Made by a program: the position numbers and the translations under genes. Source: a virus (Duplodnaviria > Heunggongvirae > Uroviricota > Caudoviricetes). From it: a stretch of DNA of 40,471 nt. The stretch is from IMG/VR virus record IMGVR_UViG_2565956717_000010, positions 1 to 40,471 of that record; one strand, written 5' to 3'. Under the pieces are notes generated by a model. The model was given only the letters and a program-made list of their open reading frames with translations. It made no database searches and was not told the origin of the DNA. Of the stretch, positions 3,361 to 34,670 are shown piece after piece. Numbering within the stretch: the stretch's first letter is position 1; each line of letters starts with the position of its first letter.

Positions 3361-3387
3361 CCCGCAAAATATTGCGGGCTTTTTTTT
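3361..3387 (+). terminator. Strong intrinsic terminator (plus-strand polarity) between lysis cassette and tailspike
   Basis: Stem CCCGCAA/TTGCGGG with 4-nt loop followed by T8 on the plus strand. On the minus strand the hairpin is preceded by an A-tract, so it is not a classical minus-strand terminator. Confidence 0.5.
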
Positions 3388-6300
3388 AACGTTCTTCCAG
3401 AGACTGAATCCGCTCTTTTATCTTATCCATTTCTCTGCGCTGCCATGCTGCCTCGATATAGAATAAGAGATCAGGTCTGACCCCCCATCTAGATCCTGCT
3501 GGCGTTATTTCAACGCGCTCAATGATGTCTTCCATTACCATCACTGGATTATCATCCTCATCAACAATAATGCTCCCGTCATTATCAGTCAGCGGCATTT
3601 CCCTTTGGCCAGTAATGACGTCATCATATACTGCGGGATAATCGTCATAGCAAAGAAACGCATAGCGGCATGTTGTGCTTTCTTCTTCCATGAGTCCGTG
3701 AGAAATAAGAACATCACGAAGTTGCTGCGCGATTACACCATGATGTATCCTCGCCCCTTCTTCCCCCTTTATAGCGACAGCGTTCAGCCATTTATAAGCG
3801 ATATACCTGACGTCACCCCAGGCATCCAGCAATGCTTCGTCAGGAGAGACCGGCTCTGTCTTTAATGTTCCGTCACTGGTAACCACAGGATTGGAGCCAA
3901 GATAAACTGTCGAGAACCTGTTTCCCGGACCACCAAGAGCATTTACATTATCAAGATAAGGTTTAACATCTCCGTTCTCAAAAAGATGTTCGAGTGCGTT
4001 ATATACCGCGCGACGTGGAGTACTGCTTCCGGAACCATGCAACGTTATCATTGCACCATCTGCTGAAGACGTTGTTTCACCGCCGCTAACGATTAATCTC
4101 TGAGCGGTAACATCATCAGACGGTACTTTCTTCGCAATAATGGCGTAATTACCCTCAAGTTTGACTTCCGCGCGAACTTGTCCTGATGTACCTGCATGGA
4201 CAGTCAGTGACTGGACGGCAACATCATCTGTGAAATCAACGGGTACAGGAACCGTCCTCACGCCTGACGTCGACATAAAAGTAGGAAGCGTTCTGTTAGG
4301 AGTGGCTCCGTAGACAAAATCCCTTGAAACAAATTCTTCCTGTTTAATTTTCACCCTGAAACAATACAAATCAGCCGGGTGACCATCGTGAACATAAGGA
4401 TATTTTCTGTTGTTATCCCCTATGCTCCATGGGTTTAGAAAGTCTTCCCCACCGAAAATGTAGTACAGCCAGTTGTCTTTGATACAAACTGAACCAACAC
4501 CAACCGCAGAGTTAACTATTCCGCCCTGATAAATCTGATCAGTAACATTAACCCACTCTACATTATCCAGACTCCACTCATTGACGTTAACTCTGGTCAT
4601 AAATGTTCTTGGATAATTTCCTGCATAACGGTTATCAGGTTCTCCTCCTTCCCACTCACCAAATGCGCGCTCACTGCCAAAAATAATCAGCTCATCGCCA
4701 ACTTTGGCAAAAGGAAGGTTTGAGTGATGAACATTATTTGGGAAGCGAAGAGAATTCCATGATGTACCTAAATCAGAGCTTCTGTGCAATGAACTACCGG
4801 GTTGAGTACTTAATGTCCCCCTGGTCGTCAGATACAGAATGCCATCATAATATTTTACACATGGCTCAGATGCATTCGCCTCATATTCTGCAGGTATGCG
4901 TCTGCGAACAAAGCTACCAGGAGAACCGAAAGCATCAGAGAAATAGAGTATCCCAAGCTCGCGTGGACCAATATCACCATTATGGTAGCCAACAGCAAAA
5001 CTGTTATCGCTAATCGTCGCAAAACTGTGAATCTCAGTAACAGGAGTGCTTCCGTCAACAAAAGAAGGAATAGTTCCAAGACTGGTTTTTCTCCATGGTG
5101 ACGAGTGAAATGATGTACCAAAACTCCAGTATCTACCCTCGTTATTCTGATCCACATCCTGGGTATTTTGCGTCGTAACTGTAAAAGTATTTTTATCAAT
5201 AACAGTAGTCACCGTCATATTCCCGGTAACACCTGTAACACCAGAGTTTGAGAAGTTGACAAAATCACCAGCAAATAATCCGTGATCAGTAATGCGAATA
5301 TAAGCGACTTGCTGATTTGCTGCTTTCGTTATACCACCATAAACGCGAAGGCTGCGACTCATTGGGCGATCCCACAACTCTGCAACCTGCAGTTTATTTC
5401 CGCTCACGGTCCGCGTCTCAATTACAGCAAAAAGGCGATTTCTGACAACCCCCATACTCATGCAGTGATAGTTAACTGTGGGATAGTTTTCATGTAAATC
5501 TGTAAGCCATTCCGGCGTTGTCCAGGTCTTCCCGTCATCTCCTGAGCGAACCCATGCAACATGGAGGTTATTTACACCATGGCGGTCTCCAGCCATAAAA
5601 GGCGCATAGATGACATTGTCATATACAAACGTTTTATCCTGCGTCCAGGCGTTGTACCACGGTGTATCTGTAATTTTAAATAACTCTCCCTGGATAAAAT
5701 CTTCAGAAGCATAAAAAAGAGGCTGGCCCGGTATTCTCTCAAATAAAAAACGAGCATTTTTAAATCGACTGACATCCGGAAGAGTTGATACTTTAAAAGT
5801 AAGCCCTAATCCGTCAATTCTATAACCTGGAGATGAGGCTTCAAGGCACGCGCTTATTGCAGTGGAATCGTCATTTATACCATCACCAACAGCTCCAAAA
5901 TCTTTGGGGCTAATAGCATCACGCATTTTATCCTGGAACGTTCGGTACACAGCCCCAGAACCATACTGAATAAACCAACCAAAACCACCAACAACCCCGG
6001 CGATTGCAGCATCGACATAATTACGCATTGAGCGATTATTTACAGCGTCCTGCTCAAATGATGGATCTGCAAGGTTAGAAATTTTGTTTTGCTTTGCATC
6101 GTAATATTTTGCAAGCAAAGATGGTTTCATCAATGCACGTCTGAACCACCCAAAACATTGCTGGATCAGCATCGTCAGGTAGTCAAAGGCATCTTCATGC
6201 ACTTCGGGGAAAAATTTTCCCTGATTGCGAAGGTCTGTCTCCTGCACTACATCAAGCACACGATCTATCGTAATTCGCCATCCAGTAGCAAGCGGAGACG

Positions 6301-6505
6301 GAAGAACCACAGAACCGCCACTATAAGTGCCCGCCCCAGTTACCGTATAACCGGTATCCAGAACCAATTCTGTTACGTTTCCGTTCAGGTCAGACACCTG
6401 AACAACCAGGTCTGATTTTCTGAAAATTCGAAAAGTATACGGAAACGATGTCGTAACGCCGTTACCGGTGTATTCGTTGTGGTCAACTTCGGTTGAGACC
6501 GTCAT
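3386..6505 (-). CDS. Tailspike with T7 gp17-like N-terminal adaptor, sialidase-fold (endosialidase-like) domain and C-terminal intramolecular chaperone domain
   Basis: Two Asp-box motifs (SGDDGKTW, SSDLGTSW); strong resemblance, from memory, to the K1F endosialidase catalytic region (GELFKITDTP, NYHCMSMGV); C-terminal S74-like domain with SDGTLK cleavage-type motif; N-terminus EYTGNGVTTSFPYTF resembles T7-type fibre adaptors. Confidence 0.8.
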   Translation of the reverse strand: MTVSTEVDHNEYTGNGVTTSFPYTFRIFRKSDLVVQVSDLNGNVTELVLDTGYTVTGAGTYSGGSVVLPSPLATGWRITIDRVLDVVQETDLRNQGKFFPEVHEDAFDYLTMLIQQCFGWFRRALMKPSLLAKYYDAKQNKISNLADPSFEQDAVNNRSMRNYVDAAIAGVVGGFGWFIQYGSGAVYRTFQDKMRDAISPKDFGAVGDGINDDSTAISACLEASSPGYRIDGLGLTFKVSTLPDVSRFKNARFLFERIPGQPLFYASEDFIQGELFKITDTPWYNAWTQDKTFVYDNVIYAPFMAGDRHGVNNLHVAWVRSGDDGKTWTTPEWLTDLHENYPTVNYHCMSMGVVRNRLFAVIETRTVSGNKLQVAELWDRPMSRSLRVYGGITKAANQQVAYIRITDHGLFAGDFVNFSNSGVTGVTGNMTVTTVIDKNTFTVTTQNTQDVDQNNEGRYWSFGTSFHSSPWRKTSLGTIPSFVDGSTPVTEIHSFATISDNSFAVGYHNGDIGPRELGILYFSDAFGSPGSFVRRRIPAEYEANASEPCVKYYDGILYLTTRGTLSTQPGSSLHRSSDLGTSWNSLRFPNNVHHSNLPFAKVGDELIIFGSERAFGEWEGGEPDNRYAGNYPRTFMTRVNVNEWSLDNVEWVNVTDQIYQGGIVNSAVGVGSVCIKDNWLYYIFGGEDFLNPWSIGDNNRKYPYVHDGHPADLYCFRVKIKQEEFVSRDFVYGATPNRTLPTFMSTSGVRTVPVPVDFTDDVAVQSLTVHAGTSGQVRAEVKLEGNYAIIAKKVPSDDVTAQRLIVSGGETTSSADGAMITLHGSGSSTPRRAVYNALEHLFENGDVKPYLDNVNALGGPGNRFSTVYLGSNPVVTSDGTLKTEPVSPDEALLDAWGDVRYIAYKWLNAVAIKGEEGARIHHGVIAQQLRDVLISHGLMEEESTTCRYAFLCYDDYPAVYDDVITGQREMPLTDNDGSIIVDEDDNPVMVMEDIIERVEITPAGSRWGVRPDLLFYIEAAWQRREMDKIKERIQSLEER

Positions 6506-6609: not shown

Positions 6610-6624
6610 TTACCTTTCAGGTAA
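6610..6624. promoter_or_regulatory. Operator-like palindrome TTACC-N5-GGTAA (site 1)
   Basis: Perfect inverted repeat TTACCtttcaGGTAA flanked A..T; in divergent region between tailspike start and the LexA-box gene. Confidence 0.45.
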
Positions 6625-6663
6625 TTTGCAAAACGTGCTGGATAGCAAACAAATTATTTGCTA

Positions 6664-6679
6664 CTGTATAAATATACAG
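6664..6679. promoter_or_regulatory. LexA (SOS) box
   Basis: CTGTATAAATATACAG is a perfect CTGT-N8-ACAG palindrome with AT-rich centre, 22 bp upstream of ATG 6701; overlaps -10-like TATAAA. Only such box found in the window. Confidence 0.7.
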
Positions 6680-6700
6680 TTATTGCATGGAGAAGATAAG

Positions 6701-6958
6701 ATGCAGCAGTATCACTATCCACTGGAAGACGGATTTACCGAAAGGATTCACACGCCGGGAGGCGTCAGGTCACTGGTGGAGGGATCGCACTTGATGAAAT
6801 TACTCCGGGATCTCGATAAGGATGGATTTAATGTCGATGGCCCACTTGCCGAACTGACTGCACTGATTAACTACGTCACCAGCTCACAGATGTCTATGCA
6901 GGATCTGCAAACACATCTCGACTATTGTGCCGAACAATTACGAAAGCAAACCAGATAA
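6701..6958 (+). CDS. Small protein homologous to the C-terminal domain of the adjacent antirepressor (SOS-controlled antirepressor candidate)
   Basis: 85 aa from ATG 6701 with GGAG RBS; C-terminal ~60 aa align with the C-terminus of the 7276-7926 product (GVRSLVEGSHLMKLLRDL...DLQTHLDY vs GVLGLTENSLLMNLLNQL...DIQTHAEY). Confidence 0.6.
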   Translation: MQQYHYPLEDGFTERIHTPGGVRSLVEGSHLMKLLRDLDKDGFNVDGPLAELTALINYVTSSQMSMQDLQTHLDYCAEQLRKQTR

Positions 6959-6989: not shown

Positions 6990-7004
6990 TTACCTTTGCG
7001 GTAA
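6990..7004. promoter_or_regulatory. Operator-like palindrome TTACC-N5-GGTAA (site 2)
   Basis: TTACCtttgcGGTAA, 32 bp after the stop of the small antirepressor-like gene. Confidence 0.4.
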
Positions 7005-7095
7005 ATTTACATCGCACTCCTCTTGTGCCATAGTAATCGGGCACTGGCAAAATCCAGTGCCGGGATTGGTCTCCCGGATTACTAAGTGGCGCATA

Positions 7096-7117
7096 CCACG
7101 CCAGACGTGGTTTTTTT
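7096..7117 (+). terminator. Intrinsic terminator after small antirepressor-like gene
   Basis: Stem CCACG/CGTGG with 5-nt loop followed by T7. Confidence 0.5.
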
Positions 7118-7275
7118 ATGCGTATAGCACAGTCATGCCAGAATTATGGTGGGCTGAATGGGGGTCCGAAAGGACGCCGGTACCACTTAGGCCGGTAAGA
7201 CCAACTCCGTTCAGTTCACCACCATCTGATTGGTCTCAGCGGTGGTGATGTAATTCGCTAAGTGGAGACGCCATA

Positions 7276-7926
7276 ATGAACGCTCAACTCATCCCCGTAT
7301 TCAACGGCACTATATCCAACGAAACCGCTCTTCTCGTTAATGCCCGTGATTTACACACTTTCCTCGATGTGGGTAAGCGATTTGCTTCGTGGATTGTCGA
7401 ACGAATTTCTGAATATGGTTTCGTTGAAAATCAAGACTTTATGATTATTTCCCAAGTTCGGGAAAAAATAGGCAGAGGCCGTCCTGCAAAAGACTACCAC
7501 CTCACCCTCGATACAGCCAAAGAGCTGGCGATGGTCGAGCGTAACGAAAAAGGTCGTCAGGTACGACGCTACTTCATTGAATGCGAGAAACGTTTAAGAC
7601 AACAAGAAACAAAAGTGGAGAAGGTCTTGTCAGGCTTCATGCCCGCCATTATGGAGGCGATCAAGCTGGAAGACAAAAAAGAATACAGTGCCCCACTGAA
7701 GCCCGGCTACCGTAGCCTGATTCATTCGCCGTCTGGTGTTCTCGGCCTGACGGAGAACTCACTGCTGATGAATCTGCTGAACCAGTTACAGGACGACGGG
7801 CACGACGTATCGGGCGCGGCGGCGGAGCTGACCACCATGTTCTGCTACATCGTCGGTGTGAGCAAATGCCTGCGTGATATCCAGACCCACGCGGAGTACA
7901 TCAACGACAAGGCAGGGTTCTTCTGA
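7276..7926 (+). CDS. Antirepressor, AntA-type N-terminal domain
   Basis: N-terminal LIPVFNGT...LVNARDLHTFLDVGKRFASWIVERISEYGFVENQDF matches the AntA/AntB antirepressor pattern as I remember it; GGAG RBS; C-terminal domain shared with 6701-6958. Confidence 0.7.
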   Translation: MNAQLIPVFNGTISNETALLVNARDLHTFLDVGKRFASWIVERISEYGFVENQDFMIISQVREKIGRGRPAKDYHLTLDTAKELAMVERNEKGRQVRRYFIECEKRLRQQETKVEKVLSGFMPAIMEAIKLEDKKEYSAPLKPGYRSLIHSPSGVLGLTENSLLMNLLNQLQDDGHDVSGAAAELTTMFCYIVGVSKCLRDIQTHAEYINDKAGFF

Positions 7927-7992: not shown

Positions 7993-8007
7993 TTACCTTA
8001 AAGGTAA
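7993..8007. promoter_or_regulatory. Operator-like palindrome TTACC-N5-GGTAA (site 3)
   Basis: TTACCttaaaGGTAA, 26 bp upstream of ATG 8034; overlaps a second palindrome GTAAACC-atg-GGTTTAC (8004-8020). Confidence 0.45.
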
Positions 8008-8033: not shown

Positions 8034-8243
8034 ATGGGATTTTGGTTCGCTCGTACAAAAACGAGGGATAATGCACCCAGCCCTCAGGCAAAAAATGCAG
8101 AAGTTCCGGCGTCAGCGCAGGTTAACAAGCGTGGTGGAGTATATATCTCATCACAGCAAATTTCTGAGCTTCCTGAGGTTAAGGAGATGCGTCGTCTCGC
8201 TGCTGCAATTGTTAAACAGGATCTTGCCACTGTAAGGAAATAG
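8034..8243 (+). CDS. Hypothetical small protein, first gene of cargo operon
   Basis: 69 aa; GAGGAGGAG RBS immediately upstream; stop overlaps the next start (TAGTG). A competing 74-aa ORF in another frame (8011-8235) lacks an RBS. Confidence 0.4.
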   Translation: MGFWFARTKTRDNAPSPQAKNAEVPASAQVNKRGGVYISSQQISELPEVKEMRRLAAAIVKQDLATVRK

Positions 8244-9109
8244 TGTTGTTAGCTCTTCTAATTATCCCCATTCTGGTTAGTGGTTATATTATGATAACCG
8301 CTAACCAGTATCATTATTTCCGTTTATACCGACATGAAGGCCAGCTTCTTTATATGAAAGTAGCTGCATTAGGTACATATTGCCTTGTTGCATCAGTAAT
8401 AATTGCAGCCGCTATAAAATATAAATGGCCTGATTTTCACCTAGTTCACGATATGGTGGAAACTTTTAATGTAACATCAAAACCAGAAACAGATAGAATT
8501 TACATGTGGCTGCTTCTTCTCTCAGCCACATCCATTTGCTTCTCTTTGTGTTATGTGTCTGTTGTGTGGGTGAAAGATTTTCTTCTTGGTTGTTTTTATA
8601 AACGTGATATTTACGAGCAAAAAACAGAGGCAATGAAGGCCAGAGTACTGCGAAAAACTTACTCGCAAGGTTCTTTAGACTTACTATTGCTTGATGCTAT
8701 TGAATCGGATCCTAAACGACCAATGTTGATTACTTTATCATCAAACAAAGTGTATGTTGGAATAATAAATGGTTCTGGTGAACCAACGGAAAATCAGGGT
8801 CCGCATCAGCACATATCTTTTGTTCCTTTAATGTCAGGATACAGGAACAAAGAAAACTTATCTGTCACATTCACTAATGCTTATCCAGGAGAAATACAGG
8901 TCAAGCGGACTGCAGCAATAAGAGGAATTAGCAGAAAGAAAGTGCTAGGACTTGAGATCATGGTGTCTATTGACGAAATAAGTTATATATCATGGTTTGA
9001 TTTTGAAGTATATAAAGCAACAAATAACAAAGTAGAATCCAGGGGGCACGTTATTCGTGTTACCAAAAATGGAAGAAATATATATCAAAGAAATAGCAAA
9101 AAAGAATAG
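8243..9109 (+). CDS. Hypothetical membrane protein (three N-terminal TM helices plus ~170-aa soluble domain), AT-rich cargo
   Basis: 288 aa; AAGGA RBS; three hydrophobic segments in first ~110 aa; markedly AT-rich codon usage compared with flanking structural genes; terminator directly after stop. Confidence 0.6.
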   Translation: MLLALLIIPILVSGYIMITANQYHYFRLYRHEGQLLYMKVAALGTYCLVASVIIAAAIKYKWPDFHLVHDMVETFNVTSKPETDRIYMWLLLLSATSICFSLCYVSVVWVKDFLLGCFYKRDIYEQKTEAMKARVLRKTYSQGSLDLLLLDAIESDPKRPMLITLSSNKVYVGIINGSGEPTENQGPHQHISFVPLMSGYRNKENLSVTFTNAYPGEIQVKRTAAIRGISRKKVLGLEIMVSIDEISYISWFDFEVYKATNNKVESRGHVIRVTKNGRNIYQRNSKKE

Positions 9110-9129
9110 CCCGCGCTGCGGGCTTTTTT
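9108..9129 (+). terminator. Intrinsic terminator after cargo membrane-protein gene
   Basis: Stem GCCCG/CGGGC with 5-nt loop followed by T6, starting at the stop codon. Confidence 0.55.
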
Positions 9130-9201
9130 GTGGACGAAACAAAAGTCAGTGCTACACTCATTGACGCCACATTGAGGTGGCTTATAGATGGAAATTTCAC
9201 A

Positions 9202-9363
9202 ATGAAAAAAGCATTTGCTGCACTGTTCGTTTTGTTGTCTCTGGTAGCTTCAACTCAGGCCTTTGCCGGTCGTTGTCAGCACGACAGCGATACTGCTGCT
9301 GACGGCTCCCGCTGCGGTGGGCGTTCTGCGGATTCCCGTCCGGGCGGCGGTGGCATTCGTTAA
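9202..9363 (+). CDS. Small secreted Cys/Gly-rich protein
   Basis: 53 aa from ATG 9202: signal-peptide-like MKKAFAALFVLLSLVASTQAFA followed by a short Cys-, Gly-, Asp- and Arg-rich segment. The longer ORF from 9130 is less plausible. Confidence 0.4.
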   Translation: MKKAFAALFVLLSLVASTQAFAGRCQHDSDTAADGSRCGGRSADSRPGGGGIR

Positions 9364-9386
9364 AAACAAGGCCGCGAAAGCGGCCT
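9362..9386 (-). terminator. Intrinsic terminator for minus-strand gene 9400-9858
   Basis: In minus-strand sense: stem GGCCGC/GCGGCC with 4-nt loop followed by TTGTTTTT; adjacent perfect palindrome GTGACATGTCAC (9387-9398). Confidence 0.45.
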
Positions 9387-9399
9387 GTGACATGTCACG

Positions 9400-9858
9400 C
9401 TACTTGCGAAATCTTTCTTTACCCTTCCAGCCAGTAGATGTTAGTTCAGGATGAATGGTTCCCAATATAAAGCCAACCATAGCGGAGCGAGGATCTTCTA
9501 TTTTATCCGTTAATTCTTCGGCATAACTCACAGGCAACCAAGCAACAAGATCACCAATCCTCAGCTTTGGTCCTTTGCTGTAAGATGAATCGGCAATAAC
9601 AAAAAATCCACCATCAGCTGAGCACACCTTCAGCATTGCCCTTTGTCTTCCAGAATCTAGCAAAACTGGCTGTTCCCCACTGGGACCAGGTATGATGATG
9701 GCTGGCATTGGTTTATTGGCTGAAAGGCTTGTGTCAAGATACTTACACGCATACTCAAAAGCTGAAAAGTTATCCTTAAAGATAAGAGGTTGAATTTTAT
9801 TGCTAACCTCCTTACCACCGATTAATCTGTTGATCATCTTCTTGAACATAAAGGTCAC
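9400..9858 (-). CDS. Hypothetical protein (cargo)
   Basis: 152-aa ORF with own terminator; no recognisable motif; start lies only 3 bp from a divergent gene, so start or reality is uncertain. Confidence 0.4.
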   Translation of the reverse strand: MTFMFKKMINRLIGGKEVSNKIQPLIFKDNFSAFEYACKYLDTSLSANKPMPAIIIPGPSGEQPVLLDSGRQRAMLKVCSADGGFFVIADSSYSKGPKLRIGDLVAWLPVSYAEELTDKIEDPRSAMVGFILGTIHPELTSTGWKGKERFRK

Positions 9859-9861
9859 CTA

Positions 9862-10302
9862 ATGATTAAGCCGATGCACGCTATTACAGCTACCGTTTTG
9901 TTTATCCTACCAATTTTTTCGTTTGCAAACGACATATGTTTTAAGAATTTAATAAATGAGGATATGTGTGCACATGCAAACAAAATCGCATCAGAAGCAG
10001 GAAAGTCACTTCCCATAAAATTGAATGATAATATGTCTATTGTTTCAATAAATGCAATACTAAACAAACTTTTAGTTGTAGCGCATCTTAATTACAACAA
10101 CAGCTATTTATCAAAAGTTTATAATGGTGATATAACCTTAGAAAATAAATTAAAGAGTGTGATGCGAAATTATTCAAAATCGAGCATTTGCTCCAACAGG
10201 CAAATGAAAGCATTTATTCACCTTGGCGGAGAGATTGAGTATAGGTATGTATTTAGTGATGGCAATATATTTGATACATACGCCATCACTAATTGTGAAT
10301 AG
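9862..10302 (+). CDS. Hypothetical secreted protein, strongly AT-rich (cargo)
   Basis: 146 aa; N-terminal signal peptide (ATVLFILPIFSFA); several Cys; AT-rich like 8243-9109. Confidence 0.45.
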   Translation: MIKPMHAITATVLFILPIFSFANDICFKNLINEDMCAHANKIASEAGKSLPIKLNDNMSIVSINAILNKLLVVAHLNYNNSYLSKVYNGDITLENKLKSVMRNYSKSSICSNRQMKAFIHLGGEIEYRYVFSDGNIFDTYAITNCE

Positions 10303-26082: not shown

Positions 26083-26159
26083 GTGGCATTAGCTCAGTTG
26101 GACAGAGCAACCGCCTTCTAAGCGGTTGGTCGCAGGTTCGAATCCTGCATGCCACGCCA
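26083..26159 (+). tRNA. tRNA-Arg (anticodon UCU)
   Basis: 77 nt, hand-folded cloverleaf: acceptor GTGGCAT/ATGCCAC, D-stem GCTC/GAGC, anticodon stem ACCGC/GCGGT with loop CTTCTAA, T-arm GCAGG-TTCGAAT-CCTGC, discriminator G, encoded CCA. Acceptor stem differs from the host argU I remember. Confidence 0.85.
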
Positions 26160-33967: not shown

Positions 33968-33982
33968 TCACCCATAAGGTAA
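33968..33982. promoter_or_regulatory. Operator-like palindrome, imperfect (TCACC-N5-GGTAA; site 8a)
   Basis: In divergent immunity region; overlaps predicted Cro-like promoter spacer. Confidence 0.45.
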
Positions 33983-34085: not shown

Positions 34086-34670
34086 ATGAAAAGTATCCAG
34101 GACGTCCGCAGGCAAAATCTCAACGACTTGATCGACCGTGAATTCAATGGTGTTCAGACGCGGATGGCAGAAAAACTTGGAACTCAGGCAAATCTGGTAA
34201 ACCGCTGGGCTCTTGGCAAGAAGGTTATCGGCGACCAGGTTGCGCGAAAAATTGAAGCTGCCGCCAATAAACCCCGTAACTGGCTTGATATCGATCGCTC
34301 GCTTTCTCAGGAAGGTTTTCAGCCTGTCGGCCCAAGCGACATTGGCCAGCTGGCGGCTCACAACCTGGAACGCTGGATGAGCGAAAGCCGCGACCTTTCA
34401 ACACAGGGAAAACTTCACCGCGCATCCGGCGTCGCCCAGGTGACAATCAGCCGCCTGTTAAACAATGAGGTCAGCGTTTCCATTTCCACCCTGGAGAATG
34501 TTGCATCCGCATTCGGGCGTCACGGCTATGAATTACTGATTCACCCGCACGACCCTGCGACCATCAACTATGACCGCTCGCGCTACGCATTGTTACCCGA
34601 AACCGAGAAAGCAAAGATCGAAAGTTACATTGAATTTGTCATCAACCAGAACGAAAAAAACAAACAATAA
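34086..34670 (+). CDS. Double-HTH XRE-type regulator, candidate lysogeny repressor without autocleavage domain
   Basis: Two HTH-like segments (GVQTRMAEKLGTQANLVNRWALG and GVAQVTISRLLNNEVSVSISTLENVASAF); no S24 peptidase motifs; divergent from Cro-like gene across three palindromes; own terminator. Confidence 0.55.
   Translation: MKSIQDVRRQNLNDLIDREFNGVQTRMAEKLGTQANLVNRWALGKKVIGDQVARKIEAAANKPRNWLDIDRSLSQEGFQPVGPSDIGQLAAHNLERWMSESRDLSTQGKLHRASGVAQVTISRLLNNEVSVSISTLENVASAFGRHGYELLIHPHDPATINYDRSRYALLPETEKAKIESYIEFVINQNEKNKQ

Follow-up and report, generated by a model that had tools for sequence, protein, structure and literature searches.

A probable SOS-controlled antirepressor gene, ant, in an epsilon15-like prophage of Escherichia coli and a putative RNA-gated second antirepressor behind it

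Experimental SOS induction by antirepression has reportedly been described for the ant gene of the Salmonella phage SPC32H by Kim and Ryu in 2013 (J Virol 87:11775) and by Kim et al. in 2016 (PNAS 113:E2480). The LexA-Ant switch is therefore already known, i.e., published and structurally solved (PDB 5D4Z and 5D50), in a close relative of the prophage that we have analyzed here, a stretch of 40,471 nucleotides (nt) that makes up the IMG/VR virus record IMGVR_UViG_2565956717_000010 (hereafter the window), in which a gene of 85 amino acids (aa) at positions 6701-6958 is our main subject. SPC32H Ant is made after the self-cleavage of LexA and inhibits the repressor by protein-protein contact (PMC7380047). 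Two further papers add that the C-terminal domain of Rep, a looping-type tetramer, mediates both tetramerization and Ant binding (PMC9986798), and that Ant is itself a tetramer that disassembles the repressor tetramer (PMC9638917). A LexA-controlled antirepressor is also the logic of Tum in phages 186 and Fels-2, GfoA/GfhA in Gifsy-1/3 and AntC in N15 (PMC3121763, PMC7380047). As to control by RNA, the immI operon of P1 follows an a'/b', a1/b1, a2/b2 design (summarized in PMC8198154), and in the isrK-orf45-anrP region of Gifsy-1 terminator read-through yields the mRNA while the short IsrK activates translation in trans (Hershko-Shalev et al., 2016; PMC4825925). Our analysis indicates, with a probability of about 0.9, that the 85-aa gene of the window is an SOS-controlled antirepressor acting as in SPC32H, with LexA as the off-switch and Ant inactivating a non-cleavable repressor. 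The elements of the proposed switch are the following:

3386-6505, minus strand: endosialidase tailspike gene, left of ant and divergent from it
6610-6624: operator-like palindrome TTACCTTTCAGGTAA, 91 nt upstream of the ant ATG
6639-6667, plus strand: candidate ant promoter proposed from conservation (-35 TGGATA at 6639-6644, 17-bp spacer, -10 TACTGT at 6662-6667)
6662-6681: LexA box TACTGTATAAATATACAGTT, with its core CTGT-N8-ACAG CTGTATAAATATACAG at 6664-6679
6689-6692, plus strand: Shine-Dalgarno GGAG, 8 nt before the ant ATG at 6701, conserved in the upstream alignment
6701-6958, plus strand: ant, 85-aa antirepressor, orthologue of SPC32H Ant by homology, synteny and PHROG family
34086-34670, plus strand: rep, 194-aa prophage repressor and presumed Ant target, by homology to PDB 5D50

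The protein encoded at 6701-6958 was 87% identical to SPC32H_020 (Ant) and matched chain E of PDB 5D50 ('Anti-repressor protein') over residues 2-84 with an E value of 4.1e-47 (phmmer); its PHROG family is 450 (E 9e-48). A Pfam scan of the 85-aa protein gave no significant family, the sole match being a sub-threshold and spurious one to DUF724, and the AntA domain (PF08346) was absent from it. The genomic position tells the same story: the slot beside the SPC32H tailspike is annotated as ant, 'anti-repressor protein', and in the window, SPC32H, epsilon15, phiV10 and phiv142-3 the gene is divergent from the tailspike gene and oriented opposite to the late genes. By these comparisons of sequence and gene order, the window gene is ant, which in the temperate phages of the epsilon15-like group (Uetakevirus) encodes the small antirepressor. 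For the comparative work, 245 loci encoding Ant relatives were gathered from the records of SPC32H, epsilon15, phiV10 and phiv142-3, a scan of genome contigs (five loci) and scans of IMG/VR, the first of which gave near-identical copies while the diversity came from two later scans with divergent queries. They provided 137 distinct upstream sequences, spanning Ant lineages of Escherichia, Salmonella and Klebsiella type together with named loci of Citrobacter, Erwinia, Pseudocitrobacter, Scandinavium and Enterobacter; several of the counts below rest on the first 89 loci, as stated in each case.

The textbook E. coli LexA (SOS-box) consensus is TACTGTATATATATACAGTA, and the 20-mer TACTGTATAAATATACAGTT agrees with it at 18 of the 20 positions. 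The original prediction, made from the letters of the window alone, had pointed to this site, and the box proved to be real: 86 of the first 89 loci have it at position -37 or -38 relative to the ATG. The distance of 22 bp that had been given from the box to the 85-aa open reading frame (ORF) needed a small correction, with 21 nt separating the core from the ATG (box at -37), while the ORF itself stood. The upstream regions of SPC32H, phiV10 and phiv142-3 align with the window and retain the box, at an equal distance from the start in SPC32H. Of the 137 distinct upstream sequences, 95 match at all eight arm positions, 36 depart from them at one position (131 thus have at most one mismatch) and 2 at two positions, and in the remaining four the box is broken by an insertion sequence. 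The inner 8 nt vary freely (ATAAATAT, ATGTTTAT, ATATTTAT, ACATTTAT, ATAAACAT and others). Shared ancestry alone would not be expected to leave constant arms around a variable centre, whereas a site bound by a protein would. Within the window, CTGT-N8-ACAG occurs three times against 0.53 expected, a number reached in none of 100 shuffles, and the remaining two sites (21733 and 26275) have G+C-rich spacers. The candidate -10 TACTGT overlaps the left arm of the box; between the operator-like palindrome and the box the upstream alignment displays two blocks conserved across genera, CTGGA(T/A)A and TA(C/T)(-/A)TGT. The box therefore probably overlaps the ant promoter, a reading that depends on the hexamers proposed.

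A comparison of the deposited SPC32H and SPC32N sequences over the 601-bp ant region detected two base differences, one of which changes ACAG to AAAG in the right arm of the box; the equivalent base of the window, C6677, is conserved. According to Kim and Ryu (2013), SPC32N is reportedly induced constitutively because a single base of its LexA box is altered; the difference in the deposited sequence agrees with that account.

Other natural changes of the box were observed. A lineage of Klebsiella/Enterobacter type (our loci L091-L154, L171-L177 and L248) has fixed a C-to-A change of the left arm; its box reads ATGT-N8-ACAG with a perfect TATATATA centre and lies one base nearer to the ATG; this is the one-mismatch group, and its LexA affinity and basal ant expression may differ. 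In the IMG/VR contigs of our loci L012/L241 (at about 2975-2990 in L012), L129 and L133, one and the same foreign end sequence (...GAAGACCCAT) replaces the left half of the box and the promoter. Just upstream of the interrupted box of L012 (the same contig as L241) lie an ISL3-family transposase and a DUF1706 gene, which points to the insertion of an ISL3 element into the A+T-rich middle of the box. L129 and L133 belong to Klebsiella-type lineages, which suggests that the box centre is an insertion hot spot. Such an insertion should uncouple ant from LexA.

The presumed partner of Ant is encoded far to the right. The window Rep matched chain A of PDB 5D50 ('Repressor') over its full length (E 4e-42); it is 42% identical to SPC32H Rep and 100% identical to the repressors of phiV10 and phiv142-3. 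In a Pfam scan Rep matched helix-turn-helix families only, with no Peptidase_S24 autocleavage domain. We have also searched the window for the palindrome TTACC-N5-GGTAA and, allowing up to one mismatch, found 12 copies against 0.76 expected (starting at 6610, 6990, 7993, 25746, 28544, 28562, 31623, 31685, 33968, 34016, 34728 and 34790). Often two of these 15-bp sites lie 18-62 bp from each other. Most transcription units are preceded by such sites, those for replication, terminase, portal and ant among them, and rep has them on either flank, at 33968, 34016, 34728 and 34790. In the same way, SPC32H has 18 such palindromes at syntenic places, three of them between rep and the divergent gene and one upstream of ant. 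Specifically for ant, most of the first 89 loci have the palindrome at -91 or -92 relative to the ATG and, in 35 diverse upstream regions, its arms are invariant and its centre variable; the GenBank record of epsilon15 labels the equivalent site upstream of its ant homologue as protein_bind, 'repressor; lysogeny'. The palindromes are thus very probably Rep operators, judging from their distribution and conservation, and such a dispersed set resembles that of the C1 repressor of P1.

The two partners have diverged to different extents. Between the E. coli prophage and the Salmonella phage, Ant is 87% identical but its presumed target Rep 42%, the NLVNRW recognition-helix motif and the operator half-sites being common to both. 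In Enterobacter phage Tyrion the identities to the window were 78% for Rep, 86% for Ant and 77% for the C-domain of the fusion gene described below, and in a Klebsiella phage 45%, 62% and 53%, respectively, so that across these few comparisons (Tyrion, the Klebsiella phage and SPC32H) the divergence of Ant and Rep is not monotonic.

The switch that we propose for the window would operate as follows. In the lysogen, the LexA of the host would sit on the box at 6664-6679, overlapping the ant promoter, and would keep ant silent. Upon DNA damage RecA would become active, LexA would cleave itself and ant would be transcribed. Ant would then bind the C-terminal tetramerization domain of the non-cleavable Rep (34086-34670), and the DNA-binding Rep tetramer would be broken up and leave the TTACC-N5-GGTAA operators at the lytic promoters. 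What we have computed for the window is orthology, synteny, box conservation, the presence of a Rep partner and the lack of a detectable autocleavage domain in it. LexA repression, Rep binding and tetramer disassembly are carried over by analogy from the published work on the SPC32H orthologue, and we infer the exact promoter hexamers and the binding of the 42% identical window Rep by the window Ant. The likeness to SPC32H includes the genus, the slot beside the tailspike gene, the level of Ant identity, the distance of the box, a homologous repressor where no autocleavage domain was detected and the TTACC-N5-GGTAA palindromes with one upstream of ant. The differences are the host (E. coli for the window), the endosialidase tailspike, the 42% identity of Rep and an extra antirepressor under isrK/C4 control that the window carries downstream of ant and SPC32H lacks. 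Indirect evidence comes from relatives: in E. coli Uetakevirus prophages of the phiV10 species, a microcin that damages DNA gave a 21- to 47-fold induction (bioRxiv 10.64898/2026.05.26.727859). The proposal that induction proceeds by SOS-dependent antirepression instead of repressor autocleavage is supported, by way of the SPC32H orthologue and of a Rep in which no S24 domain was detected. Its comparison to Gifsy-type phages and to Tum of phage 186 holds for the regulatory logic, in which the promoter of the antirepressor has a LexA box and a repressor that is non-cleavable is inactivated by protein-protein contact. It does not extend to kinship: no relationship of the 85-aa protein to Tum, GfoA or GfhA was detected by Pfam or by its placement in PHROG 450, with no direct pairwise comparison made to Tum. 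Besides, PMC9638917 reports that SPC32H Ant disassembles the repressor tetramer through the C-terminal domain, different from the Tum/Gifsy types. The window Ant would work like those systems without being a member of them, as an analogue in logic, and its proper comparator is SPC32H Ant, a distinct family.

Several points weigh against this interpretation. The support for the switch in the window prophage comes from sequence comparison and from work on an orthologue, and the Rep of the window is just 42% identical to the one co-crystallized with Ant, which leaves the binding of the window Rep as a prediction. The hexamers of the ant promoter match the consensus weakly and were not reported by a generic promoter scan, which showed no stronger site. 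The left arm ATGT in place of CTGT in the Klebsiella-type relatives implies that the affinity for LexA may differ between lineages. Finally, the operator-like palindrome located 40 bp upstream of the box suggests that the control of ant is perhaps not by LexA alone.

The gene has a relative close by, and the original prediction had taken the small gene for a free-standing paralogue of its C-terminal domain.

7276-7926, plus strand: 216-aa modular antirepressor, AntA N-domain and Ant-like C-domain (residues about 135-212)

The neighbour is indeed an antirepressor of the AntA type, with the Pfam AntA domain (PF08346) at residues 21-90 (97.4 bits against a cutoff of 27, E 7e-28) and PHROG 377 'anti-repressor Ant' as its family (E 2.9e-65). 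Its C-terminus also matched PHROG 450 (E 4.6e-36) and PDB 5D50_E (E 9.5e-14). The homology between the two products was confirmed by BLASTP (31 of 78 identities, 40%, E 7e-16), and it is wider than the C-terminal 60 or so residues that had been proposed, joining residues 2-79 of the small protein, nearly all of it, to residues 135-212 of the large one. In related prophages, a near-invariant stretch of about 80 C-terminal residues is joined to Bro-N (the commonest), AntA, P22_AR_N or ORF6N. At least one fusion gene was present in 76 of the first 89 loci and none in SPC32H or epsilon15. The derivation is therefore the reverse of the one first suggested: judged across these loci, it is the free-standing 85-aa protein that is universal and canonical, and the 216-aa gene is a separate, optional second antirepressor with a paralogous Ant-like domain. 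In the phage collection, a tblastn search placed the Ant-like domain, free-standing or fused, in 32 records, compared to 36 records with Rep. The host taxa of the two groups agree, and their genomes, of Uetakevirus type and about 38-44 kb, are essentially one set; in either form the domain was found only in genomes that also encode the Rep family of the window. The numerous matches of DNA of Shiga toxin (Stx) phages to this region do not involve the domain. That the domain tracks the carriers of Rep argues for an effector part directed to Rep. A generic oligomerization module of unrelated phages, which we had also considered, was rejected on the same tblastn records, 32 in number and with hosts matching the Rep-carrying set.

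Variation around the fusion gene was frequent. In phiV10 (our locus L003, 3719-3924) a frameshift divides the Ant-like C-domain of the Bro-N 'anti-immunity protein' between PhiV10p23 and PhiV10p22; the small ant, upstream of it, is intact. An extra, inverted Ant-like fusion gene lies 1.5-3 kb downstream in a number of loci (L016, L021, L025, L027, L029, L044, L047, L050, L064-L066, L069 and L088), with an inverted isrK or C4 sequence also detected in L021, L044, L047 and L088. Other loci have an extra 0.8-1.1 kb between ant and the isrK module, and in L012 this stretch holds a gene on the opposite strand.

Other explanations of the region have to be considered. One is that the true gene is a 126-aa ORF starting at the in-frame ATG 6578, which would put the LexA box inside coding sequence. 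In the window this frame is open, many automatic gene callers predict the longer form, and a cluster of 126-aa proteins (833 members) and clusters of 127-aa proteins exist in the protein database. However, the frame is open to ATG 6578 in only 28 of the first 89 loci, the others breaking it by a 1-nt indel or stop codons, which indicates that the 85-aa start is the real one; the GGAG 8 nt before ATG 6701 and the 86 aa of the crystallized SPC32H Ant stand against it as well. We have rejected the 126-aa ORF as the real gene on this frame conservation and give it practically no credence. Alternatively, the LexA-like sequence could be a chance fit of an A+T-rich promoter element, with ant answering to some signal other than SOS. 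The overlap of the box with the proposed -10, the random appearance of the two further CTGT-N8-ACAG matches in the window and the ATGT arm of the Klebsiella type would fit this idea, but it is extremely unlikely in view of arms that stay invariant across genera around a variable centre, the 18 of 20 consensus positions matched and the box-arm difference between the SPC32H and SPC32N sequences. In addition, the literature places ant under LexA control (PMC7380047). The original prediction had left open whether the small product is the inducer or modulates the full-length antirepressor. Modulation might take the form of oligomers in which the two proteins mix by way of their common domain. Such assemblies are conceivable, with the domain homologous in both proteins and SPC32H Ant being a tetramer (PMC9638917), and overexpression of the large Bro-N-type ORF4 of vB_EcoP_ZX5 reduced lysogeny (PMC9782041). 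Against it, SPC32H, epsilon15 and 13 of the first 89 loci have ant and the LexA box without a second Ant-like gene, phiV10 keeps the small ant with the domain of the large gene frameshifted, the protein crystallized with Rep is the small one and the large gene is under its own unrelated control. The role of inducer was thus favoured for the small product, and that of modulator seems very improbable.

More weight deserves a double control of ant, which would be gated by LexA and also by Rep at 6610-6624, possibly looping to 6990-7004 across the gene. Production of Ant would then be self-reinforcing once the first Rep molecules had been removed, a refinement of the LexA-Ant switch rather than its exclusion. 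The conserved place of the palindrome, its invariant arms in the 35 representatives, the use of the same motif in the intergenic region between rep and the cro-like gene and ahead of other transcription units in both the window and SPC32H, and the two palindromes flanking ant 380 bp apart are all in line with it, as is the looping-type tetramer that PMC9986798 attributes to Rep. On the other hand, the palindrome is centred about 57 bp upstream of the proposed transcription start, outside the core promoter, and could serve the divergent tailspike promoter instead. Moreover, one base change in the LexA box was reportedly enough for the constitutive induction of SPC32N, meaning that Rep alone does not hold ant off there. 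We regard this double control as a tentative possibility, rather doubtful on balance, and keep the simple LexA-Ant switch as our preferred explanation.

Immediately behind ant, we have found a module of small RNAs that would control the 216-aa gene.

6990-7004: operator-like palindrome TTACCTTTGCGGTAA, abutting the -35 of the isrK promoter
7006-7034, plus strand: candidate isrK/C4 promoter, TTTACA, 17 bp, (TG)CATAGT, from a consensus scan and conserved in the modules
7041-7117, plus strand: isrK-like small RNA (Rfam RF01394, a family of Hfq-binding RNA, 67.7 bits against a gathering score of 50, model positions 1-77 of 77)
7066-7072 and 7082-7089: C4 target copies a1 and b1, in isrK
7142-7226, plus strand: C4-type antisense RNA (Rfam RF01695, 61.2 bits against a gathering score of 45)
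7230-7265, plus strand: leader targets a2 and b2, with b2 overlapping the GGAG Shine-Dalgarno (7264-7267) of the 216-aa gene

Transcription from the candidate promoter would begin near 7041, where position 1 of the Rfam isrK match falls, and the isrK-like RNA ends in an intrinsic terminator (stem at 7095-7111 and a T-run). In the C4 RNA, the hairpin loop b' is CCACUUAG (7183-7190) and the single-stranded a' is AGACCAA (7198-7204). Element b' is complementary to CUAAGUGG at 7082-7089 (b1) and at 7258-7265 (b2), and a' to UUGGUCU at 7066-7072 (a1) and 7230-7236 (a2). When 82 modules (37 distinct) were compared, three variants of a' and four of b' appeared, each co-varying with both of its targets, and this covariation is strong comparative evidence for the pairing. 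Of 175 modules, 168 have a palindrome of the Rep type at -51 relative to the isrK start, regardless of the sequence in front of it, and TTTACA-17-CATAGT follows; at 6990-7004 of the window it is a putative binding site of Rep. According to this arrangement, the 216-aa gene would be transcribed from a promoter abutted by a Rep-operator-like palindrome, and its translation would be blocked by C4 pairing across the ribosome-binding site. A coupled ORF like orf45 or icd between C4 and the fusion gene was rejected by inspection, its start and frame not being conserved among the module variants. A scan for terminators and promoters detected no terminator between ant and isrK, so that SOS-driven ant transcripts should carry the isrK/a1-b1 sequence.

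The design of this module is that of immI in P1/P7 (c4, icd, ant1/2), with a C4 RNA, one upstream and one downstream pair of targets, the latter over the ribosome-binding site, an operon promoter with an operator (putative in the window) for the primary repressor, and an antirepressor as the product. It departs from it in lacking an icd-like coupled ORF, in a b2 that overlaps the Shine-Dalgarno of the antirepressor itself, in an antirepressor C-domain that is paralogous to SPC32H Ant and not that of P1 Ant, and in its location directly behind a LexA-controlled ant with no terminator between them. The Gifsy-1 isrK-orf45-anrP region (PMC4825925) shares an isrK RNA with its own terminator, then a complementary processed RNA and then an antirepressor-like gene, but no conserved equivalent of orf45 was found in the window-type modules. 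Similar to a lesser degree is immI of P22 (mnt, arc, ant and sar RNA), by analogy with which the second antirepressor, restrained by an antisense RNA, would act on superinfection and not be needed for SOS induction. Some variants of the window neighbour even carry a P22_AR_N N-domain; the window lacks Mnt/Arc, uses C4 rather than sar and has another C-terminal domain. In phage vB_EcoP_ZX5, overexpression of the Bro-N-type ORF4 lowered lysogeny about a thousand-fold, with the small ant unmentioned by the authors (PMC9782041). Since the LexA-Ant switch had been described before, the residual novelty is the tandem arrangement of ant and a second antirepressor under isrK/C4 control. It is possible, and we put it forward tentatively, that the E. 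coli Uetakevirus prophages have a two-tier bipartite immunity, not described as such, in which the LexA-Ant switch is combined with an optional P1-immI-like module gating an antirepressor with an Ant-paralogous domain.

The window as a whole is an epsilon15-like (Uetakevirus) E. coli prophage, and the region is closest to Escherichia phage phiv142-3, phiV10 and other Uetakevirus podoviruses. Among the RefSeq matches that include an endosialidase tailspike, the best was a prophage of BEN5202, an avian strain of E. coli, with 99% identity over 93% of the query. This type of prophage was found, at least in part, in 889 of 5,426 complete E. coli genomes, and the Stx-converting TL-2011b is among its relatives. 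The tailspike has End_N_terminal, beta-propeller, beta-barrel, tail-spike and S74 chaperone domains, i.e., it is a full endosialidase, and the polysialic-acid (K1) capsule should therefore be the target of the phage. Three more features of the window are the following:

7993-8007: operator-like palindrome TTACCTTAAAGGTAA, ahead of the cargo genes 8034-9109
26083-26159, plus strand: tRNA-Arg(TCT) gene, between the terminase and portal genes
right end of the window: integrase gene, which reaches it

The place of the tRNA gene matches that of the annotated tRNA-Arg of SPC32H. The four genes at 8034-10302 occupy a slot that is empty in SPC32H. They encode proteins of 69 aa (PHROG 5739), 288 aa (PHROG 3630), 151 aa (minus strand, PHROG 9944) and 146 aa (PHROG 8772), and the palindrome at 7993-8007 precedes the first two. 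Pfam gave no match for the 69-, 288- and 151-aa proteins, the three that were scanned, and PADLOC gave none for the products of ant, the fusion gene and these four genes. The cargo genes may be expressed in the lysogen.

The practical value of these results is in annotation. The RefSeq/PGAP label of ant is 'hypothetical protein' and that of PHROG 450 'unknown function', gene callers often give the 126/127-aa forms and the record of Enterobacter phage Tyrion has a truncated 54-aa version, for what would be the SOS trigger of this prophage type. Induction by way of LexA and Ant, instead of repressor cleavage, would explain the response of these prophages to antibiotics and bacteriocins that damage DNA.

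Of greater biological interest is probably the antirepressor with a swappable head and an Ant-like tail, placed under a C4/isrK switch with co-varying specificity classes. If the tentative two-tier immunity is true, ant transcripts may titrate C4, or act like the IsrK of Gifsy-1, and unlock the second antirepressor in a feed-forward commitment step. Many E. coli members share a 100% identical Rep, while the a'/b' elements of C4 and their targets fall into several co-varying classes. In that case the class of C4, and not Rep, may set the superinfection-immunity groups, as happens between P1 and P7. The region would offer a tractable system to learn how two antirepressors split SOS induction and anti-immunity.

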